From an uncultured Thermodesulfobacteriota bacterium (GTDB lineage Bacteria > Desulfobacterota > DSWW01 > CAZFWM01): a DNA stretch of 42,147 nt. The translations under genes were made by a program, and so were the position numbers. This document shows positions 34 to 38,592 of this stretch, piece after piece (the stretch's first letter is position 1; the number at the start of each line of letters is the position of its first letter). The stretch spans positions 1 through 42,147 of the forward strand of contig CAZFWM010000015.1 in the NCBI GenBank assembly GCA_964522545.1, read 5' to 3'. Under the pieces are notes generated by a model, which was given only the letters and a program-made list of their open reading frames with translations, did not search any database and was not told where the DNA came from.

Positions 34-2016
34 CTACGCTTGATTGAGGCCTAGTATATATAGATTTCCATTGTTAACACCTTGAATAATATTCGCAATA
101 TTTAATACATCAACTTTCGCTGTTCCACTAACCTCTAATTCCTCACTTGGACTCTCTGTCCCAATCCCTACATTGCCACCTGTTATATATAAATTGTTAT
201 CATTAACACCTTGAGTAATATTCGCTATATTTAATACATCAACCTTCGCTGTTCCACTAACCTCTAATTTCTCACTTGGGCTCTCTGTCCCAATCCCTAC
301 ATTGCCACCAGCCTTTTGAAGTACTAACTTATGTGAGGGGGAAATAGTGTGTATATCTAATCCGGCCATCGCCAAATTCCATTGAATTACAGCCTTATCA
401 GCGCCATTACTCTCGCTGAATATAATCTCTGGCATATCATCGGCTCCTGACAACTCAAGTAAACCACTTGGATCGACTGTCCCGATGCCGACTTTGCCTA
501 ACATATTTAAATCTCCTGTGATGTTATCACCTATGACATTCACAAACTCATCTTGTCCTGCAGCGACCGCCTCCAAATCAGTATAGCGAGTATGGTGGGC
601 ATCGACCACGGACGCATGGCCTGCGATGTCAAAATCGATCTCAACCGAAATATCTAAGTAGTGCTTTCCGTCCACTTTGTCTGCATTCTCCGCGTTGAGG
701 ATCGTGATATCATCAGGAATCTGTGCATCTGTTGCAAAATCGGTAAGCTCAGAAAAACTCGTGGTCTTAATGTGGTGGACATCAGACACAGAACCATGGG
801 CCGAAATATCATCATCGATCTCATCCGACTCCTCAAGATCTGTCGCATGAATCCCATCCACCGTATCCGCATCCTCGGCATAAGCCGCTTGATCGATGTA
901 GCCTGCTATGGTTCCGTCTACTAGAACATCACCAGCGACGTGGAGGCTAGCTAGGGGATCTGTTGTCCCGATGCCGACGTGGCCGCTTCCTCCATGTATA
1001 AACATTAAATCGTGTGTGTCAGAAGTATCTGTCTTTATGCCTTGCCACTTGAAATGTCCATGATCATTACTATCTGTACATTTAAACGTAGTCACTGGTG
1101 CGGCTTGTTCATATGGCACATCTATTGTAAGCCCCGCACCAGGAGTTCCGTTATATCTTAATCTAATCTGTCCATCATAAATATCAAGAGAATTCTGTGA
1201 ACTCGTCGTCCCAATTCCAACGTTACCTAATATACTAAGATCTCCTGTAATAATATCGCCTATTTCATTGACAAACTCATCTTGCCCTGCAGCCACGGAT
1301 TCAGCATTAGTATATCTTGTGTGGTGGACTGATGGATCAGAGCCATGAGAGGAGACATCAGCATCGATCTCGGCTGACTCCTCCAAGTCTGCTCCCTCCA
1401 TCCCATCTACCGTGTCTGCGTCGCCAGCTGTCATTGCGTATAAGATCATAATATCATCGGGGATCTGGGCATCGGTGGCAGTGTCTGTCAGATCTGCAAA
1501 ACTCGTAGTCTTGACGTGGTGCGCATCGGTTATGGTTGCATGGGCGGAAATATCAGCATCAATCTCGTCCGACTCCTCAAGGGTAGCGGCCTCAAATCCA
1601 TCCACTGTATCAGCATCTTGTGCCTCAATAGCGAAAAGAGAACTCACGATCCTCTCCCTGGGCACAAAATACTCTCCACCTCCGCCCCCGTCCACGATCA
1701 CTTCCAGCCAGCATGGCCCGTCAATAAGATCCGGAGTAATCGGATTGATCTGGCCGAGAATAACGTTGAATATTCCTCCATCCACCGTCACGGTCACCGG
1801 CCCTTCGGTCCACAATTCCAGTCCGTCTATCTCCTGATCGTAAATGGAGAACCACATCTGGACCTCAGCCGTTGGGTCGATACCGATGGGAATTCCATCT
1901 GGATCAGTGAGATAGCCCTGGTAGTTGAATTGGCCTGGCACTTCCGCTTGAGCCACCGGCAAAGAAAGAAACAGAAACGCCACTGTAACAAAGGTTAAAA
2001 ACTTTCCTCTTCTCAT
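34..2016 (-). CDS. Secreted repeat-rich surface protein (tail-fibre-like); a ~140-aa module with DADTVDG..LEESxEIDxDISxH..HHxKTTSF..TDxATDxQIPDDI motifs is duplicated internally, and the C-terminus carries GNVGIGTESPSExLEVSG repeats
   Basis: 660-aa ORF with N-terminal signal peptide (MRRGKFLTFVTVAFLFLSLPVAQA). The N-terminal ~230 aa are clearly paralogous to ORF 5427..7067. The 3' end holds two tandem ~129-bp DNA repeats. Function not assignable from sequence alone. Confidence 0.6.
   Translation of the reverse strand: MRRGKFLTFVTVAFLFLSLPVAQAEVPGQFNYQGYLTDPDGIPIGIDPTAEVQMWFSIYDQEIDGLELWTEGPVTVTVDGGIFNVILGQINPITPDLIDGPCWLEVIVDGGGGGEYFVPRERIVSSLFAIEAQDADTVDGFEAATLEESDEIDADISAHATITDAHHVKTTSFADLTDTATDAQIPDDIMILYAMTAGDADTVDGMEGADLEESAEIDADVSSHGSDPSVHHTRYTNAESVAAGQDEFVNEIGDIITGDLSILGNVGIGTTSSQNSLDIYDGQIRLRYNGTPGAGLTIDVPYEQAAPVTTFKCTDSNDHGHFKWQGIKTDTSDTHDLMFIHGGSGHVGIGTTDPLASLHVAGDVLVDGTIAGYIDQAAYAEDADTVDGIHATDLEESDEIDDDISAHGSVSDVHHIKTTSFSELTDFATDAQIPDDITILNAENADKVDGKHYLDISVEIDFDIAGHASVVDAHHTRYTDLEAVAAGQDEFVNVIGDNITGDLNMLGKVGIGTVDPSGLLELSGADDMPEIIFSESNGADKAVIQWNLAMAGLDIHTISPSHKLVLQKAGGNVGIGTESPSEKLEVSGTAKVDVLNIANITQGVNDNNLYITGGNVGIGTESPSEELEVSGTAKVDVLNIANIIQGVNNGNLYILGLNQA
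60..312. repeat. Two tandem ~129-bp (43-codon) near-identical coding repeats (…NVGIGTESPSE(E/K)LEVSGTAKVDVLNIANI…)
   Basis: Direct comparison of 70..192 with 199..312 shows the same sequence with a few substitutions (period ~129 nt, measured from the ttaacacc landmark at 74 and 203). Confidence 0.8.
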
Positions 2017-2102: not shown

Positions 2103-2990
2103 TCATGTATTGACCCAAACAAGCTGAAATTCCTCTAACCCACCAGCAGTAAAGAGGCCGGTATAGATTCCAATCAATCCCAAGCTTGGCAGTGGGAATG
2201 AAATCGGAATTTCGATAGGTGGGTATATTTTAGGCAGCGGAATGCTCCAAAGCGGTATGACCTGTACGCTTGGCGAGGTCAGGATCAAATAATTCGCCCA
2301 CGTGGCAGCCTCGATCGTTGCAATCGTATAATTTAGGACAAGATAACTGTACAGGTATTGCGCATCCAAATCCAAAATGAATTCGTAACAGTCTTCGAAA
2401 TCATACCAATCGAGCAAATCATCGCAATCGTCATCAATGCCATTATCGCATTCCTCTACCACACCGGGGTTCACATCTGGATCAGAGTCATCACAATCCG
2501 GGCCTCCGCAAGCCTCGTCTGTGAAGCCATCTCCGTCTTCATCCCAGCATATGCAGTCTGCTTCATCTTCTGCATCGATCAGACCATCACAATCATTGTC
2601 AATACCATCTGTGCAGGTCGGCTCTTGTGGCGGTCCTTCCTGAGCACCTGGATTGATATCAAAGTCTGTATCATCGCAATCGTCTCCCCCGCAGGCCTCA
2701 TCTAAAAAGCGGTCCCCGTCCTGGTCCCAGCACCCCTGAAGGCTTGCCAACTGTGCGATATAACCGGCTCGGATGCGAAAGCTTGAGCTTTGGGAGAATC
2801 CGATGGGTGTGGACTGGCCTATGGCCCCGATGTTCAGATAGCCTGCTGAGGAAGTCTCAGCTCCACCATTATCAAGGACATGTACAGGTACTTCGTAGGA
2901 GGGGCTCGACATGCCTCCAGAGGAGGGCAAGACCCAGGCGAGAGCCAGAAGGATCATACTTAACACCGCTTTGATATTCTTTACTTTCAT
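2103..2990 (-). CDS. Secreted Cys/Asp-rich protein with two MopE-type putative metal-binding repeats (C..D.DCDD.D.D.NPGA.E.C.DGIDNDCDG.ID) and a conserved ~90-aa C-terminal domain shared with ORF 38593..39318
   Basis: ATG at 2990 is preceded by AAAGGAGAT 7 nt upstream; the ORF track's longer start at 3020 is less likely. A signal peptide (MKVKNIKAVLSMILLALAWVLPSSGG) is present. The tandem Cys/Asp repeat motif is visible twice. The C-terminus ATWANYLILTSPSVQVIPLW…GLIGIYTGLFTAGG…LVWVNT aligns with the C-terminus of the tetraheme cytochrome at 38593..39318. Confidence 0.65.
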   Translation of the reverse strand: MKVKNIKAVLSMILLALAWVLPSSGGMSSPSYEVPVHVLDNGGAETSSAGYLNIGAIGQSTPIGFSQSSSFRIRAGYIAQLASLQGCWDQDGDRFLDEACGGDDCDDTDFDINPGAQEGPPQEPTCTDGIDNDCDGLIDAEDEADCICWDEDGDGFTDEACGGPDCDDSDPDVNPGVVEECDNGIDDDCDDLLDWYDFEDCYEFILDLDAQYLYSYLVLNYTIATIEAATWANYLILTSPSVQVIPLWSIPLPKIYPPIEIPISFPLPSLGLIGIYTGLFTAGGLEEFQLVWVNT

Positions 2991-3528
2991 CGCAAATCTC
3001 CTTTCGATATTATTCCTCACGGATCGTTGCGTTTTTCCCTTTAAACGTTAGAGGACGACCGATTGTGAGTGTGTCCACGCTGAAGGTATTGTCAGATCCG
3101 GCTTTGAATATCAGTGTGGCTCCACCGGGCGCTTCAGCAAGTGCCTCTTCTATGCTTTGATAAGGATCATTTGGAGTTCCGTCACCGCCATCAGATGCTC
3201 CGACAAATTTAACTATGCTTTCAGGCGCGATTTCCGTGACCTGGTGTTGGTCAATGGTGTAATCTACACTGTCGCAAGAGTACCAACCGTCATCTGATCC
3301 ACTCCATCCCATGTTCATTTTAAATCGCCTGTCCGGATCATAACCCTTGTCATATCCATAGATAACCCATGTGTGGCCCACCTTTCCTTTCCCATTTACG
3401 TTACTACCTTTAGTGGTTCTATCACCCCTGAAAGCAACAGGACGAAGCCATTGTATCTCTCTGGTTATCTTCTCTATGTCTCTACCTGAATAATATGCAT
3501 CTTGGTCGTATTTAATGAAGTCTGAAAA

Positions 3529-4180
3529 TCCACGTGCTGCGCACGTGGTCAGAGAAAAAGGCTCTGACTAAAACGCGGCTCGGGAATCTCCTATAATCCA
3601 GAGTTGTTCCCGCAACGCTGGAAAGGAGAAAACCATGAGCCGCTTCCGAAAGCTATCACACGCAATATGGCATTGCCAGTATCATCTTGTGTGGGTTCCA
3701 AAGTATCGATACCGCGTCCTTGAGGGCGTGGTGGGTCGAGAAGTGCATAATTGTCTCCGCGTATTTCTTGGGCAGAATGCCTGTGAATGCGTGGAGTTGA
3801 ACGTTCAACCGGATCATATACACCTAATAGCGATGATTCCTCCCAAGAAGTCGATATCGGAGATGGTGGGGATTCTGAAAGGTCGTACAGCAATTCGGGT
3901 GTTCAAGCAGTTTCCGTATCTGAAGAGGAAGCCCTATTGGGGCAACCATTTCTGGGCGCCCGGGTATTGTGTCGATACCGTGGGTCTCAACGAGGAGATG
4001 ATCCGGAAGTACGTGAGGTTTCAAGAGAAAAAAGAGCGTCATCAGGAGCAACTTAACCTCCAGTATTGATAAAATTGCGTTGCGGGACGTGACCGCCTGC
4101 TTGCATCCTTTGGGTGCAAGCACTCAGCCACTCTCTGAGTGGCCTAAGCAAAGCCACGTCCTCTGGGCGTGGCTTTTTTA
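3529..4180 (+). mobile_element. IS200/IS605-family insertion sequence (single tnpA, Y1 HUH transposase) with subterminal hairpins
   Basis: Left-end hairpin CCACGTGC-tgc-GCACGTGG at 3530..3548. Right-end hairpin AAGCCACG-n9-CGTGGCTT at 4151..4176. Together they bound a ~650-bp element carrying one 144-aa IS200-type transposase. The element interrupts the C10 peptidase reading frame. No target duplication is expected for this family. Confidence 0.75.
3635..4069 (+). CDS. tnpA: IS200/IS605 family transposase TnpA (Y1 HUH)
   Basis: 144 aa. HxH motif in HIHLIAMIPPK. Typical IS200 N-terminus MSRFRKLSHAIWHCQYHLVWVPKYR. Conserved C-terminal Tyr region (YVRFQEKKE). RBS GGAGAAAACC lies upstream of the ATG. 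Confidence 0.85.
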   Translation: MSRFRKLSHAIWHCQYHLVWVPKYRYRVLEGVVGREVHNCLRVFLGQNACECVELNVQPDHIHLIAMIPPKKSISEMVGILKGRTAIRVFKQFPYLKRKPYWGNHFWAPGYCVDTVGLNEEMIRKYVRFQEKKERHQEQLNLQY

Positions 4181-4182
4181 CA
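4150..4182 (+). terminator. IS right-end hairpin followed by a T-run (likely also terminates tnpA transcription)
   Basis: aaagccacgTCCTCTGGGcgtggcttttttac: 8-bp stem with a 9-nt loop, followed by TTTTTT. Confidence 0.5.
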
Positions 4183-5426
4183 ATGATCCTCTAGAACATT
4201 ATCGATATCTATCGCACTCGCAGTAGATCCTTTAATACCATAATCCATATTGAGAGCGACTCCCACGTGATAGCAAAACATGGCCATTGCATCGCCCCCC
4301 CCCGGAGGAAGGCTTGACCATTGATCTCTCATGAGACTCCAATGGTATGGCGTGGAGCCAAAATCAACAGAACAGACTACCTCTTCATGTGTAAGATCGT
4401 TCCAAAGATCTTCTAATCTGCTCAGATATTCACCGTCACTACTTAGCGTCTTTGCCTTATCATAGAGGCTTTCATCCCAATATCCGTTCATCTGCAGCCT
4501 GCCCCCTTGTGGCGGAGTATCAATCCAGCGGAGTCGGTCATTCCATGGATATCCTGAAGGTATTACAGGATTTGTCGATAAAGCTTCTTCATCCCAATCA
4601 CTTCTCCATCTATAATTATACTTAGTCTGCCCCGTATTCTCACCTGTCGCAGGCCATTCCCAGTAGTACATTATCTGAGACGTGGCTGTGGCCACGCATC
4701 CGACCACGGTATGCTCATTTGGCGGGTTTAAGACAGGGCATTGAGCATTATAGGTTGCACTCCCAGGCGAAGAGCCTCCTTGATTCCATTTTGATGTCAA
4801 ACTCAGTTCCATCATTATTGGATCGTCCTTAACTTCCCTATTTCTAACAGTTCTATCAGGAATTTGCCCTTGAATAAGGTCGTGCCAAAAAGCAGATCTT
4901 TCTTTCAATGCTTCTTGGTATTCCTGCAATTTGGGATCTTTCTCTTTTAGCCCTTCCTTCAAATGCTTCAATCTTGTACTAATTTCCCAAAGGATATAGT
5001 TCATGTTTGGATCTTTTTGATCATATGTCCCTCTTGGACTATAGAAATAGACCGGCAGAACAAGGTCATCTGCGCCGCAAAGACAGAAGCCATCATCAAT
5101 AAAATGCACGATGTATGCAACTGTCTCTCCTTGTATTTTATGAGGTTTTATCTTTTCGATAACTGCATCCGGTTTCGCATCAGCTGTCACATGGCGTACC
5201 CAGGTTTCGACTGCAATTCGAACATCTTCCTTCACAATCTCTCTGGCGTAAAGAAAAGAAGGAGTCAAAATCAGAGATAATGATAGTAGGAAGCCAAAAG
5301 GTGGGCCAGACAGGAAAAAAATATTTGAAACTCGTCCCATTATTACACCTATTTTCTTTAGTTCTCAGGTGCTGGGCAGATCATTGCCCTTAATTTATAG
5401 AAATGATTTACCCCCTGTCCGCATCC

Positions 5427-7067
5427 TTAGTGCAAAGTAACCAGAACCAGAACTAAACCTTCTCCCTCCTTAAGTTCAGTCATAGCTTTGCCTAAAATCG
5501 CTCCGTGAGACTTTTCATTGTCTGCTGCTTTCATCGCATAGCCAGGGTTTGGAGAGGTTGTAAGGAGATCGCCTGGCTGGATTGAGCCATGGGAAGCGTC
5601 ACATAGGCCAAAGACACGACCAGAGAGAGCGACATTGCTCTTGCTATCAACAGATTCTTCTTGAGTAAGAGTTATGCCAGGGTTGATGCCGCCTGCCCCG
5701 CTGACGATGCCAGCCACGCACCGATCGTAGGGTTTGTCAGAAAGTTTGAGCTTACCAGGATTGTCTGGATCGATTGATAAGACCAGTCCGGGTTTAATTT
5801 TGTCAGGCTCTTTGATATCAAAGGGTTCTGCTATGTCGGATCCGCCGGTTATGGTAAGAACATCTGTGGTCGTTGTCCCAATTACATGAAGTCTGGATGT
5901 TGGACTCGTTGTGCCGATGCCGACATTGCCAGCAACATGATTGACAAAAAATGTGCCAAATCCTACGTTTAAACTTGGTAGTATTCTGACATTTTGAGCT
6001 GCTACTGTATCCAACGTTAATCCATTTTCGTCAGCAGATACTAAACCAACGCCTCCTACATCTAGAGTTGGTAGTATTCTGACATTTTGAGCTGCTACTG
6101 TATCCAACGTTAACCCATTTTCGTCAGCAGATACTAAACCAACGCCTCCTACATCTAGAGTTGGTAGTATTCTGACATTTTGAGCTGCTACTGTATCCAA
6201 CGTTAACCCATTTTCGTCAGCAGATACTAAGCCAACACCGCTTATTTCAATTACCCCAGCAACATTTAGTTCATTTCCTAATATGCTCAAGTCTCCAGTG
6301 ATGATATCGCCAACTTTATTCACAAACTCATCCTGACCTGCAGCCACGGCCTCTATATCAGTATATCGTGCATGGTGTGCTGACGGATCATAAGTGTGTG
6401 ATGAGATATCGGCATCGATCTCGGCAGATTCCTCTAATGCCACACCTTCCATTCCATCTATCGTGTCTGCATCGCCGGCCGTCACCGCATAAGTGACCGT
6501 AATGTCATCTGGGATCTGAGTATCTGTCGCCAGATCGGTAAGCTCAGAAAAACTCGTGGTCTTTGTGTGATGTACATCTGATATGGCTGCATGAGCTGAA
6601 ATATCAACATCGATCTCGGCCGACTCTTCCAAGTCTGCCCCCTCCATCCCATCCACAGTATCTGCATCCTTTGCCTTTATGGCGAATAAGGAGCTCACGA
6701 TCATCTCTCTGGGTACCAAGTACTCGCCTCCTTCACCCCCATCCACGATCACCTCGAGCCAGCAGGGGCCGTCAATGAGATCCGGAGTGATCGGAGTGGT
6801 CTGGCCGAGAATAACGTTGAATATTCCCCCATCTACAGTCACACTCAACGGCCCTTCGGACCACATTTCCGCTCCGTCTGTCTCCTGATCATAGATGGAG
6901 AACCACATCTGAACCTCTGCCGGTGGGTCGATACCGATCGGGATCCCTTCAGGATCAGTGAGGAAGCCCTGGTAGTTGATCTGCCCCGGGACTTCAGCCC
7001 ATGCAGCAGTTGAAAGAATGCCAAAGGCCATTAACATCACAAAGCATTTAATCATCCGGCACTTCAT
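5427..7067 (-). CDS. Secreted repeat-rich surface protein, paralogue of 34..2016, with three tandem 31-aa repeats (DVGGVGLVSADENGLTLDTVAAQNVRILPTL) and a distinct C-terminal domain
   Basis: 546 aa. Signal peptide MKCRMIKCFVMLMAFGILSTAAWA. N-terminal ~230 aa closely resemble ORF 34..2016 (AEVPGQ(F/I)NYQG(Y/F)LTDP…CWLEVIVDGG…DADTVDG…). RBS AAGGAGAC lies upstream of the ATG at 7067. Confidence 0.6.
   Translation of the reverse strand: MKCRMIKCFVMLMAFGILSTAAWAEVPGQINYQGFLTDPEGIPIGIDPPAEVQMWFSIYDQETDGAEMWSEGPLSVTVDGGIFNVILGQTTPITPDLIDGPCWLEVIVDGGEGGEYLVPREMIVSSLFAIKAKDADTVDGMEGADLEESAEIDVDISAHAAISDVHHTKTTSFSELTDLATDTQIPDDITVTYAVTAGDADTIDGMEGVALEESAEIDADISSHTYDPSAHHARYTDIEAVAAGQDEFVNKVGDIITGDLSILGNELNVAGVIEISGVGLVSADENGLTLDTVAAQNVRILPTLDVGGVGLVSADENGLTLDTVAAQNVRILPTLDVGGVGLVSADENGLTLDTVAAQNVRILPSLNVGFGTFFVNHVAGNVGIGTTSPTSRLHVIGTTTTDVLTITGGSDIAEPFDIKEPDKIKPGLVLSIDPDNPGKLKLSDKPYDRCVAGIVSGAGGINPGITLTQEESVDSKSNVALSGRVFGLCDASHGSIQPGDLLTTSPNPGYAMKAADNEKSHGAILGKAMTELKEGEGLVLVLVTLH
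5975..6240. repeat. Tandem 93-bp coding repeats (copies at 5975..6067 and 6068..6160, partial third copy 6161..~6240), almost identical at the DNA level
   Basis: Copies 2 and 3 are identical over their shared length. Copy 1 differs by a single base (ttaatcc vs ttaaccc). Such near-perfect tandem coding repeats can expand or contract. Confidence 0.85.
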
Positions 7068-12685: not shown

Positions 12686-13906
12686 ATGCATGACCGATTG
12701 AAGAAGACACCCAAACCATGGCTTTTCCTTGTCCTGCTTTTGGGTGGCGTTGTACTGCCTGTCGGCACGAACGCCTGGGCCGAGGACTCCGGGGCATTCG
12801 AAGATGCCGGAGGAGGCCTTTTCGGAGAGCGGGCCTGGTTCGACAGGTTCACCCTGGGGGGATACGGTGAGGCCCATTTCAACGCGACAATGGAGGAGGG
12901 GGTCAAGGACGGGAAGGAGGTGTTCGACCTCCACCGCATCGTCCTCTACCTCGGCTACGACTTCAACGACTGGATCGTGCTCCACTCGGAGACCGAGCTC
13001 GAGCACGCATTTGTAAATGAAGGGAACGGTGAGGTGAGCCTGGAGCAGTTCTACATCGATTTCCTCCTGTGCGATCACGTCAACATCCGGGCGGGGCGTG
13101 TGTTGGCCCCTCTGGGGATCATCAATAAGTGGCACGAGCCGCCCACCTTTAACGGCGTGGAGCGACCCTCCTTCTCGAAATACATCATCCCGACCACCTG
13201 GAGCCTCGACGGGGTGGGGATCTTCGGAAACATAACCTCCAACCTGAAATACGAGGCGTACGTTTCGAGCAGCCTGGACGGCTCGAAGTTCACCGCCGTG
13301 GACGGCATTCGCAAGGGGCGCATGAAGGAGAGGCCCGGCCTTTCAGAGCCGGGCTTCAGCGCGCGCCTCGATTTCTTCCCCCTGGCCAACCTGGAGCTCG
13401 AGACCTTCCAGGACCTCCGCTTGGGGGCCTCCATGTTCATCGGGGGCCTGGACAACGGGAACAAAGGGGATGATCCCGGGATAGACGGGGATCTGAACCT
13501 CTACTCGGCAGACTTCGAGTACACGATTTCCCGGTTCGATCTGCGAGGGGTCTTCGCCTATGGGAAGATCAGCGGGGCGGCAGATATCGGCAACAACGTG
13601 GCCACCGACATCGTTGGGGGATACGTCGAGGGGGCCTGGCATTTCTGGCCCGAAGGCTGGAAGAGGGGGAAGCTCGATGATTCCGATGCCGTGCTCTTCG
13701 CCCGGTACGAAGACTTCGACACCCAAAACCAAGTGCCTTCGGGCGTGACGAAGAATGAAGCAGGGGATCGGAATGAGGTCACTGTCGGGATCTCATTCTA
13801 TCCGGTACACAACCTGGTGGTCAAAGCGGACTATCAGTTCAAGGACGATGAGACCGACGACGAGGTCAACGACCAGTTCAACCTCGGTATCGGTTGGCAG
13901 TTCTGA
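12686..13906 (+). CDS. Outer-membrane beta-barrel porin (putative)
   Basis: 406 aa. Signal peptide …LPVGTNAWA. Alternating amphipathic beta-strand pattern, Asp/Gly-rich loops, and a C-terminal …LGIGWQF ending in Phe, typical of OMPs. RBS GGGAGGGAGG lies upstream of the ATG. Confidence 0.55.
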   Translation: MHDRLKKTPKPWLFLVLLLGGVVLPVGTNAWAEDSGAFEDAGGGLFGERAWFDRFTLGGYGEAHFNATMEEGVKDGKEVFDLHRIVLYLGYDFNDWIVLHSETELEHAFVNEGNGEVSLEQFYIDFLLCDHVNIRAGRVLAPLGIINKWHEPPTFNGVERPSFSKYIIPTTWSLDGVGIFGNITSNLKYEAYVSSSLDGSKFTAVDGIRKGRMKERPGLSEPGFSARLDFFPLANLELETFQDLRLGASMFIGGLDNGNKGDDPGIDGDLNLYSADFEYTISRFDLRGVFAYGKISGAADIGNNVATDIVGGYVEGAWHFWPEGWKRGKLDDSDAVLFARYEDFDTQNQVPSGVTKNEAGDRNEVTVGISFYPVHNLVVKADYQFKDDETDDEVNDQFNLGIGWQF

Positions 13907-13959
13907 GGTCGGGAAGACGGCCCCTTCACTCTCTGGATAAAGCGGTATGAGGAAGATAG

Positions 13960-14553
13960 TTGATGGGAACAGGAGTGCGTGCGATCTGTTTGATGGTAGT
14001 CATGATTTCACTGCCCACGGGAATCGCCTCGGCCAATGAATACCTCACTTCGGAACAGGCGCTCAAAATCGCGTTCCCCGATGCGGATTCCATTGAGAAG
14101 AAGAGAGTGGCCGTCACGACAGAGCATCGGGAGAAGCTGCGGAATCGATACGGTCTAAAACGAGCATCGCGGACATTTCGCTATTTCGTGGGGGTGAGGA
14201 ACGGCGAGATCATGGGTTATTCTGTTATCGATAATATCTTGGGCGAGCGCAAGCCGTTCACCTTCATGGTGGTGGTCGCCCCGGACGGGACCGTCAAGAG
14301 CGTCGAGATCATGGCCTACCGGGAATCCTATGGCGGCGAGATTCGCCAACCGAGATTTCTGGGTCAATTCAGGGGCAAAAAGGAGAGCGATCCTCTGCGC
14401 CTGAAGACCGATGTTCAATCAGTCAGTGGTGCGACGATCTCCAGCCGTGCCGTCACGAATGGAGTTCGAATAATCCTGGCCTATCTATCCGTCATAGTTC
14501 CTCTCACGTCCGGTCAGCCGGAGGAGGGGAGCGATCAGGATTTGTCCAGGTAA
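13960..14553 (+). CDS. FMN-binding domain protein (NosR/NirI/RnfG-type FMN_bind)
   Basis: 197 aa. N-terminal signal/anchor. SGATISSRAV motif carrying the covalent-FMN Thr/Ser signature. Confidence 0.6.
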   Translation: MMGTGVRAICLMVVMISLPTGIASANEYLTSEQALKIAFPDADSIEKKRVAVTTEHREKLRNRYGLKRASRTFRYFVGVRNGEIMGYSVIDNILGERKPFTFMVVVAPDGTVKSVEIMAYRESYGGEIRQPRFLGQFRGKKESDPLRLKTDVQSVSGATISSRAVTNGVRIILAYLSVIVPLTSGQPEEGSDQDLSR

Positions 14554-14584
14554 GAACGAAATGGGGAAGCTCAAGTTCGCCGTC

Positions 14585-17227
14585 TCAGGAGGGATAGAAG
14601 CGTTCGCTGACTATGGCCTTGAGTGTTTGAGACGCACGTCCAAGGCTGAATGCTCTGTGAAAAATTCTATAGTAGAACTCTTCCCCGGAGACGATCTGGA
14701 AAAGCGCGTGACGAAGTGACCGGTCGTGCTCCGCCAGGGCCAGCACTCCGTCGAGCGTGCCCGTTCTCTGGACGGCACTTGCCAGTCTCTGCAGCAGCCA
14801 CCCGAAGCGCTGATCCGTGAGGATTTCCTGGCAGGAGTCTCGGTAGGTCTGAAACGCCCTGCGAGAGACTCCTCGGTCGAGCATGACCCGTGCCGCCCTT
14901 ATTCCACTGAGACAGGCCGATGTTATCCCCTTCCCTTTAAAAGGCCTCACGAGCCCGGCGGCGTCTCCGACCGCGACGAAACGGTCGGCGAACATCAGGC
15001 CGGCCATCCGGTTCGGGAACCTCCCCTTGTGGCAATTCCCCGGAACATTCTCGATATTGTATCCCGGTGGCAGCTGTTCTGCAACCTTGGGAAGATCGAG
15101 AAACCGCTTCATGGCCTCTGTGGAGACGAGAGGCCCTGCGATGTTGATCGTCAGGTGATTCCGCTTGGGAGTGATCGCACCGAAAACGATTCCGGGCAGG
15201 TTCGGGAGAAAGGCGAAGATCTCCTCCCCGAACCGGGACATCCACTCCTCACCCGGATGGACATTGGTCACGATCGTCTCCAGGGCCTCAGGGACCTGGT
15301 AGGAGACCCACCGCCGGAAAATCTCGGCCGAGCCCGGGTCCAGCCCGAAGGCCCCCACCACCGCGTCCGCACGGATGGAGCCATTTTCACCATAGACGAT
15401 GACCCCGTCTTTTTCATATTCGATGTCCGTTACCCGGCAAGGCATGATTTCGACGCCATGTCGGTGGGCCATCTCCATCATGTACCTGTCCCACAGAATC
15501 CGCCGGACCGCATGGGAAACATGGGTCTTCGAACGCAGCTCCAGCGATCGTTTCTCCCCACAGAGTACGTAAGTCCGGATGTTCCGCTGTACCATTTCAT
15601 GGGGGAACGGTATACCCAGGTCCCTCTCCAGCACCTCCGTGATCGGGGGGGAAAGAACCCCGGCACATTGGTTATAGTGTTGCTCGTCCTCGAATCGCTT
15701 GCCCTCATAAAGAACGACCCGAAGCGAGATTCCCCTTTCCCGCGAGAGTTTCTTCAAGGCGATGCCGCAACCCGCGCCTCCGGGCCCGCCGCCGACAATG
15801 GCCACGGTCTGCCCATCCCGCAGGGGCCCCAGTGGATCGGTCTTTGATGTGAGCACTGTGGGCGCTCTTTTTGATTTCCTGCCGTTCGCACTCTGTATCT
15901 TCGCCTGAGCCGCCGCGATCATCATCCTGGAAAGAAAGGCCGGATTGAGAGACATCATGAGGATCTTTCCGAATTTTTCATGGCCGGTGAATAGGTTCCA
16001 GCTGACCGTGTGGAGTTTATCTGCGATGGATCTACCCGGTTTGTTTTCTACGATGTACATGTGCGACCTGACCCACCACCTCCAGGTCGAGACGACATCG
16101 TTCGCCCTGAAAACTATGCGACCGAATCGATTGTCCCATACAAACTGTTTCTTCACGCGTGCCACATATCCTTTTCTAATGGCATTTCGGGACAGGCCGT
16201 TTTCGAATATCGCGCGGACGGCGGACTCTGCGGAGAAGAAAGCCGAGTCGATCCCGTTCTTCAGATAGCGGTTCATGCAGGCGTCGCCGATCACGACGAG
16301 GCGATGGCTGATAAAATTCTTTGCCTCTCTGACGGGGAAAGGGGGCCTGCAACTGCAGTACTGTGCCGGGAGGTCCCAACCCGGGGGCAGGGTTTGTTTC
16401 ACGATGGAGGATTCAAGAAACCGGATGAGGTGATCGTGCCTGAGGTCCTCCCTCCCGATAAGACACACCGTTGCGAACCTCGCTTTTGGGATGATCGCCC
16501 CGAAGCGGATCCCCTTGAGGCCGATGGAAAAGACATGGATACTGTTGCCGAGGTATTGTTCGATGTTTTCCCGGCCCAGGTCCAGTTCGGCTTGATAAGC
16601 ACGCACGCACCGGGGCGGCCGATAGCCGAATCCAGCGGAAGAGAGCTTCCTGCTGAATCCCGTGGATACGCCACAGGCGACGACCATGAGATCCGCCTCC
16701 AGCTCGCCGTCGGCCCAACGTATTCGTGGCCGTTCCGACGCACTCCCGACCGGTTCGATATCGGTGATTTCTTTCTGAACGACCTTTGCACCCAGGCGGA
16801 CTGCGCGTTCCGCCAGGAACCCGTCGAAGCTGATCGGGCGTTTCTCGGAAGAGAATCGCGGACCGTTCCCGCGGAATACGACCGGTATTGAGCCGTGTCC
16901 CGCCGGGGGCATGACGATGTGGCTACCCTCGATCGTATGAAATGTGTAGTGGAGGATCCGGCGTTGCGCGCGCTCCGGCGGGATCCGGAGTCCCAGAAGC
17001 TCGAGACGCTGCACCAGGCTATGGGAAATGACCCCGGCGCACATATTGCAGCCGGCCGGGCCCTCCTGGAGGAAGCTCTTCGGGTCGAACAGGATGGGAT
17101 GGATCCGGATCCCGAGAGATCTAGCTCTCTCCATGGCCAGAATCGCGAAAAAAGCCCCCGCAGGACCGGACCCGATGACAGCCACGGTCGAACCGTCTCC
17201 CAACTTAGGGGTCTTTGGATCGTTCAC
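14585..17227 (-). CDS. Tandem-duplicated FAD-dependent oxidoreductase (two geranylgeranyl-reductase/FixC-like flavoprotein domains fused)
   Basis: 880 aa. Two Rossmann dinucleotide motifs (VAVIGSGPAGAF and VAIVGGGPGGAG). Each half has a CAGV(I/L)S motif and a GDA(A/C) motif (VVIGDACMNRY; VAVGDAAGLVRPFKGKGI) typical of the GGR/UbiH/FixC flavoprotein superfamily. Confidence 0.5.
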   Translation of the reverse strand: MNDPKTPKLGDGSTVAVIGSGPAGAFFAILAMERARSLGIRIHPILFDPKSFLQEGPAGCNMCAGVISHSLVQRLELLGLRIPPERAQRRILHYTFHTIEGSHIVMPPAGHGSIPVVFRGNGPRFSSEKRPISFDGFLAERAVRLGAKVVQKEITDIEPVGSASERPRIRWADGELEADLMVVACGVSTGFSRKLSSAGFGYRPPRCVRAYQAELDLGRENIEQYLGNSIHVFSIGLKGIRFGAIIPKARFATVCLIGREDLRHDHLIRFLESSIVKQTLPPGWDLPAQYCSCRPPFPVREAKNFISHRLVVIGDACMNRYLKNGIDSAFFSAESAVRAIFENGLSRNAIRKGYVARVKKQFVWDNRFGRIVFRANDVVSTWRWWVRSHMYIVENKPGRSIADKLHTVSWNLFTGHEKFGKILMMSLNPAFLSRMMIAAAQAKIQSANGRKSKRAPTVLTSKTDPLGPLRDGQTVAIVGGGPGGAGCGIALKKLSRERGISLRVVLYEGKRFEDEQHYNQCAGVLSPPITEVLERDLGIPFPHEMVQRNIRTYVLCGEKRSLELRSKTHVSHAVRRILWDRYMMEMAHRHGVEIMPCRVTDIEYEKDGVIVYGENGSIRADAVVGAFGLDPGSAEIFRRWVSYQVPEALETIVTNVHPGEEWMSRFGEEIFAFLPNLPGIVFGAITPKRNHLTINIAGPLVSTEAMKRFLDLPKVAEQLPPGYNIENVPGNCHKGRFPNRMAGLMFADRFVAVGDAAGLVRPFKGKGITSACLSGIRAARVMLDRGVSRRAFQTYRDSCQEILTDQRFGWLLQRLASAVQRTGTLDGVLALAEHDRSLRHALFQIVSGEEFYYRIFHRAFSLGRASQTLKAIVSERFYPS

Positions 17228-24665: not shown

Positions 24666-26027
24666 ATGAAAGCAAGAAGAACATTTCTTACAGTTAGTTT
24701 GCTTTTGGGTTGCTTTCATCTGTTTTCGCTCACATCGGTTCTGGCCCAGGAGATGGGCTATCCCAATATTGCCCCCAAAAAGCTGGAGATCAAAAGGGGC
24801 TATACCCCTGATGCCTTGAAGTGTATTGAGTGCCATGCCAAAGAGACATCTGGTATCGTAGCGGCTTGGAAGACCAGCCGGATGGCTCATGCAGGAGTTT
24901 CCTGTTATGACTGTCATGTAGTACATAAAGGCTCTTCCATGGCCAGCCAGTGTGATGGGATAAAGGATACCCGGCCGAAAATCCATACCTCTCCGATGGT
25001 GAGCCCTAAGACGTGCGAGAGATGCCACCCTTCCGAGGTAGAGCAGTTTTCCAAGAGCTCTCATGCCCAGCTTGCCGGCGCCCCGGTAATAGAAAAGTCT
25101 GAATTTCATCATCTTATGTATGAGCTGGAAGGCGGCATATTTATGGGTATGCCGGAAGGTGACAAGCGTACCCTCGCTTCCAGGGAATCCGGGTGCCAGA
25201 TGTGCCACGGTACGGAGGTTGAGCTCAAGCCCGATAATAAACCGACGGATGATAGCTGGCCGAGTGGTATCGGCGCTCGCTATCCTGATGGCGGTATAGG
25301 CAATTGTACCTGCTGTCATAATCGGCATGAATTCAAAATTTCCGGAGCCAGGAAACCCGAGGCCTGTGCCAAATGTCATATGGGACCGGACCATCCCGAC
25401 ATTGAAATTTATTACGGAAGTAGTCACGGCCAGCTTTATCTGGCTTCGGGTGATGAGTGGAGGTGGGATAGTGCCCCTGACACCTGGGAGCCTGGTGATT
25501 ATATCGCACCCACTTGTGCCACATGTCACATGAGTGGGATTGGTGATCTGGGCACTACTCACAATGTCAACGAGCGGCTGATGTGGGACCTGGCGCATGT
25601 CAAGAGTGTGGTTCGAAGCGGCGAGCGCGGTAAGGGCGAAAAAGGACGCGAGCTCATGATGAAGGTCTGTAGTAACTGTCACAGCAAGGTTCATATTGAT
25701 AGCCACTTTGCTGGGCTGGCCAGAGCAATTGGACTCTACAATTTTTATATAGATGGAGCTCAGGAGATGATGGACGCTCTCAATGGAAAAGGGCTTCTGA
25801 AGAGCGACAAATGGAACGATCCATTTCAGAAACTCTTTTACTATCTCTGGCACCATTCAGGACGAAGGACCCGTCATGGTGCTGCCATGGCCGGCCCGGA
25901 TTATGCCCATTGGCATGGCTTCTTCCAGATGTTCCAGATGTACAAGGATATGCAGGAAATTTACGACTGGCGAAAACAGAACAATAAGATCGAGGCCCTT
26001 AGCCCGGTTATGCTGACGCTTCCATAG
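24666..26027 (+). CDS. hao: Octaheme cytochrome c of the hydroxylamine oxidoreductase (HAO) family
   Basis: 453 aa with a signal peptide and eight CxxCH motifs (CIECH, CYDCH, CERCH, CQMCH, CTCCH, CAKCH, CATCH, CSNCH). Size and heme spacing fit HAO/epsilon-Hao-type octahemes. Confidence 0.7.
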
Positions 26028-26162
26028 ATATGGATATATAAGTGCGACGATTGTGCACAGGGAGAACAAAGTCTTGAGATACTCAAACAAAAGATCGGGT
26101 TTTCTGGCCTTTGGTGTTGTGGGTCTTGTTATTGTGTCTTATGCAAATTTACAGCCTGGTCC

Positions 26163-26570
26163 TTGGCGTATACCTCTTCTGAAGAATTCTGCACCAACTG
26201 CCATGAGATGATGTACCCTTATAGAGGCTGGAAGGCATCTTCTCACTATGACAACCGGTCCGGAGTGATGGCAAGTTGCGCGGATTGTCATCTGCCTCCG
26301 GATATAGTCTCTATGATCAAGGTAAAGATCATAACAGGCACAAGAGATACATTTGTACATTATCTTGGAAATCCAGAAGGGCTTGATTTCGATGAATTGG
26401 CTAAAAAGGCAAGAAAAAATATTGCAGACGTTTCATGTGTTAAATGTCACAAGAATCTCTTTCCGACCTGTATTACGAAAGGTGGACTCATAGCGCACAG
26501 GGCATGGCAACGGGGTGTAGAGAAAAAATGCGTAGACTGCCATGTAAATCTTGTACATACACAATCGTAG
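26163..26570 (+). CDS. NapC/NirT/NrfH-family tetraheme cytochrome c (heme domain). The predicted N-terminal membrane anchor lies in the -1 frame (about 26053..26160)
   Basis: Four CxxCH motifs (CTNCHE, CADCHL, CVKCHK, CVDCHV). TSSEEFCTNCHEMMYPYRGWKASSHY matches the NapC signature. The TM helix RSGFLAFGVVGLVIVSYANL is encoded in the other frame upstream, giving an apparent -1 frameshift around 26145..26160. Confidence 0.7.
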   Translation: MAYTSSEEFCTNCHEMMYPYRGWKASSHYDNRSGVMASCADCHLPPDIVSMIKVKIITGTRDTFVHYLGNPEGLDFDELAKKARKNIADVSCVKCHKNLFPTCITKGGLIAHRAWQRGVEKKCVDCHVNLVHTQS

Positions 26571-28720: not shown

Positions 28721-30148
28721 TTAACCGTCACCAACTTCCTTACTTGATAGCGTCCTTATATAAGTAATCAAATCCACGATATTCTGATCCGGCAATCCCA
28801 CGCCCTCCTTGCCAAAAGCCGCCATATGGGTTCCTTCCCTTCCATCGCGCACTGTCACTGCGAGAAAGGCGGGGTCGATCTCCTTTTGCACCAACGGATT
28901 TCTCAGGTTGAGTCCGACGCCTCCCTCCCCCTTCCCGCCGTGGCAACTCACACAGCGAACTCGAAACAACTCTTCACCATACTCCACGTCGCCGTTGTAC
29001 CTTGCGAACTCGAACGCTTCCGGCTTTTCGCCCGCAGGCCTGTCTCTCGTCACATACTCGATGATCTTATCGATGCCTTCATCCGGAATCCCCGCGGCGG
29101 ATGTCTTCCAGGAGGTCATCGGCGTGCCCGCCCTCCCTTCGGATATGAGCATCTTGAGTAAACGGTCATCCGCAGCCTTCAGGAATGAGGGATTCATGAT
29201 TGCGGGGATGGTTCTTTTGAATACCTCGTCATAAATGCTGTCTTTCCCTGTCAAATGACAGGCGACACAGTACATTTTGTACAGGGCCTCACCATCATTC
29301 CAAGTCTCTTCTAAGTCTCGAGCTTCCCTTATGCGTCTGTATTCTCTGGGCGCCTCATCAGACTTCAGCGATAATACGTAGGTTGTCAGGAGATCGGATT
29401 CCTCATCTGAGAGATTCGCCAGCATCTCGCTTTCGAGGACGATATTTCTCGGGTCATCGAAGTGCTCTTTCAACCATGTATAGAGGGTTTTTTCTCCCTC
29501 TATATATTTCATGGGAAAATGGGCGGCCGGTTGAGAGCCGACGCCGTCGAGGGAATCGCCCAGCACGCCTCCGACGCCATCAAGTTTGTGACAGCCTTTG
29601 CACCCGCGATCCCTGAACAGCCGCTCCCCCCTGACGATCTTGTCCACTCCGATGCTCATTAACATTTCGAGGTCATGACAAGACGCACAAGAGCTTTGAA
29701 TGAAATCAAATGGTGTAATCGGCTTATCCCAATGGGTTTCATGGCCGACTCCATGTGCCTCTTTTTTGTTGGTAGCACGACCTTGTCCATTATGGCAGAT
29801 CGTGCACCCATATCGATCCACCGGATGAAATTCGAGATAATCGCCGCTATGTTGTTTGAGAGGCAGCTCGGCCCCGGCCATCAGCGGATTTTCCACGCCC
29901 AGGTGGCAGTTCGTGCAGCGATCCACTCTCTCCAAACTGTCGAGATAGATCTGCTGAATCTCCAGTTTCAGCGTCTTCGCTTTTTCCCGCAATTTGTCGT
30001 CTTTGGTCCTTTCGATCAATTGTTCCTTGTACTCCTTCTGGTACCCCATCCATTCGGGCCGTGCCGATTCATACCCGGCAAACAGGCTATATATCAAAAG
30101 AACCGCCCCGGACAGGAGCATCATCCATGTATAGAATGTTTTATACAT
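28721..30148 (-). CDS. Membrane-anchored hexaheme cytochrome c (last gene of the Rieske/cyt b-Mo-enzyme operon)
   Basis: 475 aa. N-terminal TM helix. Six CxxCH motifs (CTNCH, CTICH, CASCH, CKGCH, CVACH, CVSCH). The last two sit in class-I-like cytochrome c domains. Confidence 0.7.
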   Translation of the reverse strand: MYKTFYTWMMLLSGAVLLIYSLFAGYESARPEWMGYQKEYKEQLIERTKDDKLREKAKTLKLEIQQIYLDSLERVDRCTNCHLGVENPLMAGAELPLKQHSGDYLEFHPVDRYGCTICHNGQGRATNKKEAHGVGHETHWDKPITPFDFIQSSCASCHDLEMLMSIGVDKIVRGERLFRDRGCKGCHKLDGVGGVLGDSLDGVGSQPAAHFPMKYIEGEKTLYTWLKEHFDDPRNIVLESEMLANLSDEESDLLTTYVLSLKSDEAPREYRRIREARDLEETWNDGEALYKMYCVACHLTGKDSIYDEVFKRTIPAIMNPSFLKAADDRLLKMLISEGRAGTPMTSWKTSAAGIPDEGIDKIIEYVTRDRPAGEKPEAFEFARYNGDVEYGEELFRVRCVSCHGGKGEGGVGLNLRNPLVQKEIDPAFLAVTVRDGREGTHMAAFGKEGVGLPDQNIVDLITYIRTLSSKEVGDG

Positions 30149-30181
30149 TTTCCCTCAATCCTGTATTACCCCACCGTTACT

Positions 30182-30865
30182 TCAACAGGTAAGCTCATCC
30201 CCTCTTACGCCGCGGTAAGGGTCACGACTCAGCTCCTTGTTAAAAAGGGAGCTGTCCAAGCCGAATCTCTCACAATCGAGTTTCAAGACCGACTCGAGGA
30301 GTTTTGCTAGTCTCTGATAAAAGCCATCGCCCTCAAGCGCTTGAACCTGGCTACAAAAGAAAAATCCCCATGTTGCAAGGTGTTCCTTGAAAAACTTGAT
30401 TCTTGCATCTCGAACGATCCTTGTATGTTCTTGCTGTCTCTCCAGCCTAGAATACGCCTCTTTCCATTCGAGGATCGCCATGAATTCAAGTTCGACGGAT
30501 ATGTGGTCCAGGGCCTCCTTATTGTTTCTGTCTTCGTCGAGATGAAAGCCGAATGCGCTGTAGAAACCAGCTATGTCAGCGAGTTCAAAAGGTTTTCTCG
30601 ATACCTTTTCTTTCATGTATTCTGTCTCGTATGGGGATATCTCTCTGCCGATGTCAAAAATAGAGAGATATTCGGACTTCACATCGTCAATTCTATGCGC
30701 CTTCTCGAGAAAGTATTCCTTGAAACGCTTCATCTCCGACAACATTTTGTCATCGAAGATAATTTCATCCATCATGAGGAGTTTTTCGAGAATCGCCCAG
30801 TTCTTTTCATCAGGATATGAGAGTCCGAGAGAGAGGATCTTGTAACTGTACAGGAAGTCGATCAT
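30182..30865 (-). CDS. TorD/NarJ-like redox-enzyme maturation chaperone
   Basis: ATG at 30865..30863 overlaps the upstream gene's TAA by 1 nt (TAATG), suggesting translational coupling. ~227 aa all-helical protein with TorD/NarJ/EbdD-like spacing. The ORF-track start at 30943 carries a Gly-rich extension. Confidence 0.5.
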   Translation of the reverse strand: MIDFLYSYKILSLGLSYPDEKNWAILEKLLMMDEIIFDDKMLSEMKRFKEYFLEKAHRIDDVKSEYLSIFDIGREISPYETEYMKEKVSRKPFELADIAGFYSAFGFHLDEDRNNKEALDHISVELEFMAILEWKEAYSRLERQQEHTRIVRDARIKFFKEHLATWGFFFCSQVQALEGDGFYQRLAKLLESVLKLDCERFGLDSSLFNKELSRDPYRGVRGDELTC

Positions 30866-31749: not shown

Positions 31750-31756
31750 ACTCTGC

Positions 31757-32893: not shown

Positions 32894-32909
32894 TTTCCTG
32901 TTCTCTCCC

Positions 32910-37981: not shown

Positions 37982-37987
37982 CTCTCC

Positions 37988-38464
37988 TTATACTGAGACC
38001 TTTAACAGGGTTCCTTGCTTTACTTCCTTGGCCGCATCGACCACCAGGCTGCCATCCACACTCTGACTTATTTCAAGCCATGGCAAGGCTCTCGGTGCAG
38101 GTCCGGCAATAACCTTTCCATCTTGAGTGTATTTCGAGCCGTGACAGGGACACTTGAAACCGGTTTCAGCGATGGCTACTATACAGCCGAGATGTGTGCA
38201 AACACCGGATATGGCGTGGAGCCCGTCACTGTCTGAAAAGATGAAAACCTTTCTGTCGGCGAGTTTTTTCACTGTGCCCACAGGAAAATTCTCGGGTCTG
38301 CCGATCTTGAATTTTCTTGATTTCTCATAAAAAACGTTGGGCTTTGCCATTCTGAGCATCCCGGCTAGAACAGACAGAGATGACAAAATAACGATTCCTA
38401 AAGACGCCAGCCCCAGAACACTTCGTCGTGTCATTCCCGCTTCTTGTTGGGGTTCATCGTTCAT
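37988..38464 (-). CDS. Rieske [2Fe-2S] iron-sulfur protein
   Basis: 158 aa. Tat-like anchor [15 protein letters not shown]. Cluster boxes CTHLGC and CPCHGS. Confidence 0.85.
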
Positions 38465-38592
38465 TGATCCACACTCCCTTGTCGAGTCGCACCGGCAGAG
38501 TCGATGGATGGCTCGGATTCGTCATATTATTTAGATATTTTGTAACGCTGAAACGCTCCCGATACTTTCAATCAGCGCTGGCCTCTACTTGT

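Follow-up and report, generated by a model that had tools for sequence, protein, structure and literature searches.

At opposite ends of the window, by which we mean the whole 42,147-nucleotide stretch that was analyzed and that makes up the entire public contig CAZFWM010000015.1, lie two genes for exported proteins that end in the same domain of ~93 residues. Gene 1 (2103..2990, minus strand) begins at an ATG, a start site that its orthologues share, and encodes 295 amino acids; its exact product is a called gene in a public collection. The longest open reading frame (ORF) over it reaches upstream to a GTG at 3020. Gene 2 (38593..39318, minus strand) encodes a cytochrome of 241 amino acids. 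Sec signal peptides are plausible in both proteins by inspection. An earlier note, made from the letters of the window, had drawn attention to the shared C terminus. The parts of the two genes are given below; the signal peptides, the CxxCH motifs and the single Cys/Asp motif were read from the sequence, and the method behind each of the other features is in parentheses.

2913..2990, minus strand: start codon and signal peptide of gene 1, MKVKNIKAVLSMILLALAWVLPSSGG
2733..2912, minus strand: conserved ~60-residue N-terminal module of gene 1, MSSPSYEVP...AGYIAQL (phmmer)
2388..2732, minus strand: two MopE-type Cys/Asp repeats of gene 1, at 2553..2732 and 2388..2549 (Pfam PF11617)
2106..2384, minus strand: copy 1 of the shared domain, 93 amino acids, EFILDLDAQY...LVWVNT, at the extreme C terminus of gene 1, with the stop codon at 2103..2105 (BLASTP, hidden Markov model [HMM], AlphaFold)
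39232..39318, minus strand: start codon and signal peptide of gene 2, MRRFMIPRKSFIALLALIFVFSIVGSAMA
38998..39213, minus strand: tetraheme cytochrome c module of gene 2, with CxxCH motifs at 39199..39213, 39109..39123, 39064..39078 and 38998..39012
38887..38958, minus strand: single Cys/Asp motif CLDECEDLLDNDGDCLYDGDDPDC of gene 2, directly upstream of copy 2
38596..38877, minus strand: copy 2 of the shared domain, 94 amino acids, VFTCSLDASY...LAWVETG, at the extreme C terminus of gene 2, with the stop codon at 38593..38595 (BLASTP, HMM)

BLASTP with composition-adjusted statistics aligns the two proteins at E = 4e-40, and almost all of this signal comes from the C-terminal ~93 residues, a gapless stretch with 55% identity. 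The conserved blocks that the earlier note had quoted (ATWxNYLILTSPxV, IPLW, SFPxP, GLIGxYTGLFTxGG and WVxT) are all present, and an HMM built from relatives of the domain gives 152.6 bits on copy 1 and 154.2 bits on copy 2. The DNA that encodes the domain has diverged to saturation, being 58% identical between the copies overall and 34% identical at third codon positions. The same codon is used at only 14 of the 50 residues conserved between them, and gene 1 has a G+C content at third codon positions (GC3) of 0.50, compared with 0.78 in gene 2. Based on the third-position identity, the shared codons and the GC3 values, the two copies are old and sit in different compositional contexts, and the suggestion that they do not reflect a recent duplication holds. 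We conclude that the similarity of the two copies is real, old and kept at the protein level.

Relatives are designated here by P numbers and related contigs, which were read as pieces of up to 22 kb, by L numbers. In protein 1, the Pfam MopE model (PF11617) matches two stretches above its gathering threshold (E = 9.3e-11; 42.2 bits, versus a cutoff of 27), in agreement with the two MopE-type repeats first seen by eye, which presumably form a disulfide-rich acidic stalk between the N-terminal module and the shared domain. The N-terminal module (SSPSYEVPxxVLDxGG...GQxTPIG...RAGYIAQ) was found by phmmer in P0029, P0084, P0128 and a 295-amino-acid gene of L005. It always co-occurs with the shared domain, and in P0084 it is fused directly onto it. 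The module has no family match and no confident AlphaFold fold (residues 19 to 202 of protein 1). A resemblance to PamT, the pilus tip pilin of the Candidate Phyla Radiation (NF058579), was rejected, since it reaches only E = 0.0011 and 18.5 bits, versus a cutoff of 240; the PamT family is described in bioRxiv 10.64898/2026.03.03.709456. Protein 2 has the four CxxCH motifs (CSGCH, CNYCH, CDNCH and CVGCH) and the one Cys/Asp motif that had been claimed for it. The Cys/Asp motif is weakly similar to the acidic double-disulfide repeat NF033662 (E = 0.005, below the cutoff), and the Pfam Cytochrome_C7 and MtrC models touch the protein only below threshold.

The shared domain had been called undescribed-looking, and the searches bear this out. 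In both full proteins, it has no match in Pfam-A (2025) or NCBIfam (June 2026) at E ≤ 1, and when 56 diverse domain sequences were scanned singly against Pfam at E ≤ 10, no family was found, including fn3, Big, CARDB and FlgD_ig; in the corresponding scan of NCBIfam, the only model touched was PEPxxWA-CTERM, through a short motif. A profile of the 56 sequences has no match among PDB sequences at E ≤ 10, and the domain was not described in any paper that searches by topic, sample accession and contig prefix brought up. When 1.84 billion cluster representatives were searched exhaustively with a profile, 550 relatives were obtained at E ≤ 1e-3, of which 288 have E ≤ 1e-10 and 74 have E ≤ 1e-30; every family member that was looked up comes from a metagenome assembly and has no name. 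Word-index protein searches, which under-sample the family and favor truncated ORFs, returned 6 and 17 short, nameless fragments. Two pattern scans of the 185,579 species genomes in GTDB found no carrier of the domain. The patterns used match 28% of known members, and therefore the scans should have hit any genome in which the family is expanded. Searches of plasmid, phage and IMG/VR collections found no relatives, and a scan of JGI metagenome contigs found three contigs of ~1 kb only. The family is confined to an unbinned lineage. A label for this lineage comes from neighboring genes. The β subunit of a molybdoenzyme encoded in the window belongs to a 90%-identity cluster that holds MBW2367578.1, "MAG: dehydrogenase [Deltaproteobacteria bacterium]," which lies on a syntenic contig, and more distant named relatives of neighboring genes (75 to 84% identity) are labeled Desulfobacterales, Nitrospirota and "Ca. 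Magnetobacterium." Judging from gene content, the host is a diderm, because related contigs carry genes for Omp85, a heptosyltransferase, Kdo kinase, resistance-nodulation-division (RND) efflux and Mla.

Two relatives are interrupted by an in-frame TAA in an otherwise continuous gene. In L001 (2793..3539; also in L002 and L003), the interruption lies in a PPC-like domain (LPTGT*HIVVD), with the same codon in three samples, and in L004 (85..1263) it lies in a MopE repeat (CDDL*DNDCD). Stop-codon recoding was rejected as an explanation, since TAA serves as an ordinary stop codon both there and on related contigs, and the interrupted genes look like nonsense mutations or pseudogenes. Such genes are over-represented because the word-index search favors short ORFs.

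The position of the domain was recorded for 162 occurrences in 161 proteins. In 137 of these (~85%), the domain ends 12 or fewer residues from the C terminus, typically with ...WVDTG and a variable tail of 0 to 9 residues. In 13 occurrences, it lies directly after the signal-peptide cleavage site, at the mature N terminus, following a signal peptide that ends in ...AKA; a repeated form of this arrangement is MKRATKILPVLFIILLTGSVLIQTPLAKA followed immediately by DFTLELDASY.... About 12 of the 162 were scored as internal. Genuine internal copies exist, as in P0144 and P0149, where the order is MopE, shared domain and Lcl_C, and one protein scored as internal, P0031, is actually N-terminal, its start having been mis-called. 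Given these real copies after a signal peptide or inside a protein, the domain is not a sorting signal that must be C-terminal, contrary to the extreme C-terminal location that the window pair had suggested. In a neighbor-joining tree of a 94-column alignment, the N-terminal variants are not monophyletic; such a tree has little resolution, and we place no weight on it. Each protein has one copy, and no protein with tandem copies was found among the 161. P0128 at first appeared to have two, and its second copy proved to be a spurious partial match.

The domains that accompany the shared domain, its passengers, were recorded for 106 members and are diverse. MopE (PF11617) is present in 57 of them at E ≤ 1e-4, which supports the observation that a Cys/Asp motif recurs ahead of the domain, and Beta_helix (24 members), Chlam_PMP (16) and NosD (14) are also found. 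Further passengers are FG-GAP, Lcl_C, FGE-sulfatase, SBBP, N_BRCA1_IG, TSP_3, PAD_porph (arginine deiminase), CBM96, plastocyanin/azurin (cupredoxin) and rhodanese, and the tetraheme cytochrome of the window adds another type. The characterization of the carriers as two redox or metal-binding proteins fits the motifs of the window pair and is too narrow for the family, most members of which are adhesin-like or enzymatic. The usual order is head, MopE, domain, and in N-terminal variants the mirror order of domain, MopE, head is seen. This mirroring suggests that the MopE repeats form a stalk and that the shared domain forms a "foot."

Genes of the family also lie close together. The domain is carried by 9 of 12 consecutive genes in L015, a piece of a contig of 83 kb, and two family genes each are present in L001, L004 and L014. 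In L005, three or four family genes adjoin genes for the biogenesis of lipopolysaccharide (LPS) and the outer membrane (Omp85, heptosyltransferase, Kdo kinase and an MsbA-like ATP-binding cassette protein). Positions 4758..21709 of L015 form a tandem array of at least nine paralogous β-helix/NosD-like genes, all of which end in the shared domain. Interspersed, non-family genes in L015 (9110..9955, 281 amino acids, and 13816..14739, 307 amino acids) encode two paralogous secreted proteins that have no Pfam match. These proteins were considered as receptors and set aside, as they look like ordinary secreted proteins.

The structure predicted for the domain is compact and its chemistry is distinctive. 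From eight aligned sequences, AlphaFold gives a model of the domain alone with a predicted local distance difference test (pLDDT) score of 97 and a predicted template modeling (pTM) score of 0.83, in which seven long strands in 92 residues form an immunoglobulin (Ig)/fibronectin type III (FnIII)-like sandwich. The module had been described as β-like, and the model is all β. The same seven strands return in the model of full-length protein 1, which is elsewhere disordered (mean pLDDT of 48). The strands are unusually long (9 to 12 residues), and strands 4 and 5 are rich in proline. Solved Ig/FnIII domains of the E-set fold class superpose on the model; Foldseek finds no specific relative at E ≤ 1e-3, and the structural neighbors include the biofilm scaffold RbmA and the curli-associated proteins CsgC/CsgH. 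The domain contains 10.4% Pro and 4.2% Trp, essentially no Cys or His, and an average of 0.85 Lys plus Arg versus 8.9 Asp plus Glu. Its grand average of hydropathy (GRAVY) is +0.58, versus -0.29 for the remainder of the same proteins.

Across 158 domains from unrelated proteins, the mean pairwise identity is 52%, and this conservation is far above what would be expected of a spacer. W28, P37, L44, W45, L49, P59, P65, G68, L76, W89 and T92 are near-invariant. These and many positions conserved at 70 to 90% are consecutive residues of strands 3 to 7, and conserved residues therefore lie on both faces of the sheets. From strand periodicity and composition, we infer that one conserved apolar face may be exposed.

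The surroundings of the two genes in the window differ. Beside gene 1 are two genes for fiber-like proteins, which were grouped by all-against-all BLAST of neighboring genes from the window, L005 and L014.

34..2016, minus strand: 660-amino-acid fiber-like protein, immediately downstream of gene 1
5427..7067, minus strand: second fiber-like paralogue

The N termini of these two proteins weakly match NF053851 (Bdello_MAT_N), the mosaic adhesive trimer fiber of Bdellovibrio (E = 8e-6 and 1e-6; below the cutoff). Together with paralogues in L005 (14590..19961) and L014 (5878..7450), they make up a set of secreted proteins of 546 to 1,020 amino acids that have an AEVPGQxNYQGYLTDP N terminus, internal DADTVDG...HH repeats, a GNVGIGT-type C terminus and no Pfam match. 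The pairing of a fiber-like gene with a gene for a protein of ~300 amino acids that consists of the N-terminal module, MopE repeats and the shared domain recurs in L005 and L014, with the fiber-like family coming after the orthologues of gene 1. Between the two fiber-like genes of the window, on the minus strand at 3010..5340, a gene for a streptopain-like C10 peptidase is interrupted, with its N-terminal part at 4144..5340 and its C-terminal part at about 3010..3500. The intervening insertion of ~650 nucleotides (about 3500..4144) carries a Y1 transposase of the IS200/IS605 type (plus-strand ORF 3635..4069; Pfam Y1_Tnp, E = 1.4e-37). From position 1 to ~7100, the G+C content is 0.44 to 0.49 and the GC3 is 0.38 to 0.50, while most other genes have a GC3 of 0.6 to 0.8. 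Because these values are below those of the rest of the window, the left end looks like an acquired island of surface-protein genes. The whole window has no tRNA gene and no Rfam match.

Gene 2 is the first gene of a respiratory cluster. The genes that follow it were identified with Pfam and NCBIfam models.

37988..38464, minus strand: Rieske protein
36422..37981, minus strand: cytochrome b
32910..36464, minus strand: α subunit of a molybdenum (Mo) enzyme of the type II dimethyl sulfoxide reductase family
31757..32893, minus strand: β subunit of the Mo enzyme
30865..31749, minus strand: γ subunit of the Mo enzyme (EB_dh)

The Rieske to γ genes (30865..38464) lie on the same strand as gene 2 and are followed by genes for a NarJ-like chaperone and a further cytochrome c. 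A sigma-70-like promoter precedes gene 2 (39428 to 39400), and there is no terminator-like site between gene 2 and the Rieske gene. The gene order after gene 2 is kept in L008, L009 and L010, where the cytochrome retains the shared domain. The gene 2 cytochrome has no transmembrane segment beyond its signal peptide. Cytochrome subunits of bc-type complexes commonly carry a membrane anchor, and by analogy the shared domain would stand where that anchor commonly is.

The cluster as a whole (28721..39318, minus strand) is an unusual respiratory set, with a twin-arginine translocation (TAT) signal on the Mo enzyme and a last gene for a multiheme/cbb3-type cytochrome c, and it is conserved in L008, L009, L010 and L019. 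The α subunit falls far below the cutoffs of NarG, EbdA and other equivalogs. On the plus strand at 24666..26570, a 453-amino-acid multiheme protein weakly similar to octaheme enzymes of the hydrazine dehydrogenase/hydroxylamine oxidoreductase type (E = 2e-18, far below the cutoff) is followed by a small NapC/NirT-like ORF that starts with ...CTNCHEM.... Also on the plus strand, at 40228..41970, rhodanese-like and DsbD-like ORFs continue in one frame across two TGA codons that are five codons apart (40585..40587 and 40600..40602; ...IIFY*AGLA*VRS...). Downstream of these codons, the sequence matches TsoB, a selenoprotein model of NCBIfam for a rhodanese/DsbD fusion (E = 1e-234; profile positions 131 to 571 of 572). 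By this match, 40228..41970 is probably a selenoprotein with selenocysteine in the rhodanese active-site loop.

The reading that we favor, at a probability of roughly 45%, is that the ~93-residue domain is a portable, noncatalytic docking or anchoring module that tethers its carriers. Sec-exported proteins of many kinds would bear one copy at one end, mostly the C terminus, and disulfide-rich acidic repeats of the MopE type would often separate the domain from the functional head as a stalk. The hydrophobic surface of the domain, rich in aromatic residues and proline and free of Lys and Arg, would bind one common component of the diderm envelope; the candidates are a protein of the outer membrane, a glycan or LPS on the surface, and the surface of the membrane as such. 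All carriers would thereby be held at the same place in the envelope. In the window, the domain would tether the small N-module/MopE protein encoded beside the fiber-like adhesins, and likewise the tetraheme cytochrome c that is the first product of the Rieske/cytochrome b/Mo-oxidoreductase operon. We favor tethering because there is one terminal copy per protein, a stalk-like linker, a great diversity of passengers, arrays of paralogues, conservation that does not depend on the passenger, and an apolar composition free of Lys and Arg. The binding itself, its partner and the side of the outer membrane on which it would take place we infer, starting from the homology, fold and composition of the domain, the positions and range of its carriers and the gene arrays described above. 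The earlier note had proposed a sorting, anchoring or partner-docking role; many unrelated exported carriers form the pattern of an anchoring or docking domain, and it is the short C-terminal sorting tag that we do not uphold.

Several observations weigh against tethering. We found no binding partner and no conserved non-family gene that accompanies the arrays; the only recurrent neighbor is the fiber-like family, which lies beside one subfamily only. The passengers give divided cues about location, as the adhesin-like ones suggest the cell surface and the NosD-like, cupredoxin, rhodanese and FGE passengers, along with the cytochrome operon, suggest the periplasm. The exposed hydrophobic surface is a prediction from strand periodicity and composition. 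Finally, the extreme C-terminal position of 85% of the copies is what a secretion signal would also show.

A different function that could be served by the same domain is homotypic self-association, in which copies bind each other and either assemble their carriers into a common layer or matrix or oligomerize each carrier. This is a serious rival to tethering because the same features fit both readings. The high hydrophobicity and the conserved residues on both sheet faces are consistent with it, as are the dozens of co-encoded carriers and the presence of RbmA and CsgC/CsgH among the structural neighbors, and very high conservation among paralogues would be expected if all copies must fit each other. 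The single copy per protein and the proline-rich strands 4 and 5 argue in the other direction, since proline in a strand usually discourages edge-to-edge extension of a sheet. On balance we consider self-association unlikely.

The domain could also be a C-terminal secretion or sorting signal like the C-terminal domain (CTD) of the type IX secretion system (T9SS). An outer-membrane translocon would then recognize the folded sandwich and export the cargo, and the domain would be removed, with the cargo possibly left attached to the surface. The predominance of copies ending in ...WVDTG within 12 residues of the C terminus would be explained in this way, the seven-strand, Ig-like sandwich of ~90 residues is that of T9SS CTDs, and the arrays of many paralogous cargo genes, the very diverse passengers and the fact that all carriers have a Sec signal peptide only, in a diderm organism, are also what would be expected. 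However, the 13 copies at the mature N terminus and the ~12 internal copies with real domains on either side count against a secretion signal recognized from the C terminus, and the tail after WVDTG varies in both length and sequence. There is no match to Por_Secre_tail/TIGR04183 or CHU_C, even at E ≤ 10. The T9SS is known from the Bacteroidota-related group, and the nearest named relatives of the neighboring genes are Deltaproteobacteria, Desulfobacterales or Nitrospirota. These points make a secretion signal of this kind quite improbable.

The domain could instead cap or space its carriers as an ordinary Ig-like structural element, or bind carbohydrate as a generic module; it would then have no targeting role in common among them, and domain shuffling would have spread it within one lineage. 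The high content of Trp and Tyr is compatible with sugar binding, the fold hits suit this reading, and Foldseek gave no specific relative at E ≤ 1e-3. However, Ig domains that serve as spacers are as a rule polar and fast to diverge, and this domain has a GRAVY of +0.58 and a mean identity of 52% across unrelated proteins; each protein has a single copy, nearly always at an end and not in tandem runs, and the passengers include the tetraheme cytochrome, cupredoxin and rhodanese, none of which has to do with carbohydrate. We would be surprised if this explanation were correct. An artefact, whether low-complexity or compositional resemblance, recent duplication or an assembly chimera, can be dismissed even though the low GC3 of the left 7 kb could suggest a chimeric contig, since it is refuted by the pairwise E value, the hundreds of independent relatives that profile searches found in many samples, the orthologues of both genes elsewhere (P0029, P0009 and P0157), the third-position divergence and the confident fold.

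When the T9SS CTD, PEP-CTERM, dockerin and S-layer homology (SLH) modules were recognized, each gave access to a system of secretion or surface display. The census of the present family, with one terminal copy per protein, dozens of paralogues in arrays and very diverse passengers, has the signature of an address or anchoring module. Its definition would allow several hundred nameless metagenomic proteins to be annotated and would provide a marker for the exoproteome of an unbinned lineage. The domain would escape standard tryptic proteomics because it has almost no Lys or Arg. It also raises a concrete question: with no transmembrane anchor, how is the tetraheme cytochrome encoded in a Rieske/cytochrome b/molybdoenzyme operon brought into position? 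We see a slim chance that the domain is more than a tether, namely the address label of an unrecognized protein-targeting system with its own receptor or translocon, which, in an uncultured lineage absent from the GTDB species representatives, places dozens of adhesins and enzymes, the tetraheme cytochrome and a cupredoxin at the cell surface. If this were true, the Rieske/cytochrome b/Mo-oxidoreductase respiratory module would be physically linked to the cell exterior. The family would gain in interest with the discovery of a dedicated receptor or machinery, or with proof that the domain places respiratory electron carriers at the cell surface.

Among known systems, the T9SS type A CTD (PF18962, Por_Secre_tail; TIGR04183) is similar to the shared domain in that it has ~80 to 100 amino acids in a seven-strand, Ig-like β-sandwich, is usually the last domain of Sec-exported proteins, and is borne by unrelated cargos with numerous, often clustered paralogues. 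In contrast, the shared domain does not match its sequence models (both full proteins at E ≤ 1 and 56 domains at E ≤ 10), is N-terminal or internal in ~15% of copies, is much more hydrophobic and much more conserved, and is found here beside genes that point to a lineage labeled Deltaproteobacteria.

The PEP-CTERM tags are likewise C-terminal on many exported proteins, and a PEP-CTERM-like or other short C-terminal sorting tag had been raised as a possibility for the window pair. The PEPATWA segment (residues 24 to 30) does align with positions 2 to 8 of the 24 positions of the PEPxxWA-CTERM profile (NF035944), but it does so in 9 of 56 members and with at most 14.5 bits, versus a cutoff of 35, and we regard this as a coincidence. 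Unlike the motif of a PEP-CTERM tag, PEPATWA lies ~65 residues from the C terminus, in the loop that precedes strand 3 of a folded domain. The shared domain lacks both a transmembrane helix and a basic tail, in keeping with 0.85 Lys plus Arg per domain; it ends in ...LxWVDTG, and this segment is predicted to form β-strands. A tag of this type is therefore not what the two proteins share.

FnIII and Ig-like accessory domains of the E-set class, such as the β-sandwich domains of glycoside hydrolase family 2 (GH2), Vibrio cholerae RbmA and the FnIII domain of phage lambda J, have only 8 to 13% identity to the shared domain and no HMM relationship with it, and they differ from it in its strands of 9 to 12 residues, its GRAVY of +0.58, its 10% Pro and its near lack of Lys and Arg. 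Dockerin/cohesin and SLH modules attach exoproteins of many kinds to one scaffold or wall polymer. Like them, the shared domain is a small, conserved module at either end of diverse enzymes and adhesins, often behind a linker and in multigene families. Unlike dockerin, which is a Ca-binding helical duplication, and SLH, which is helical, it is an all-β sandwich of unrelated sequence, and the likeness is one of modular logic. The family itself, which matched no model or paper that was searched, is chemically unusual, and its fold and its modular logic are of known kinds.

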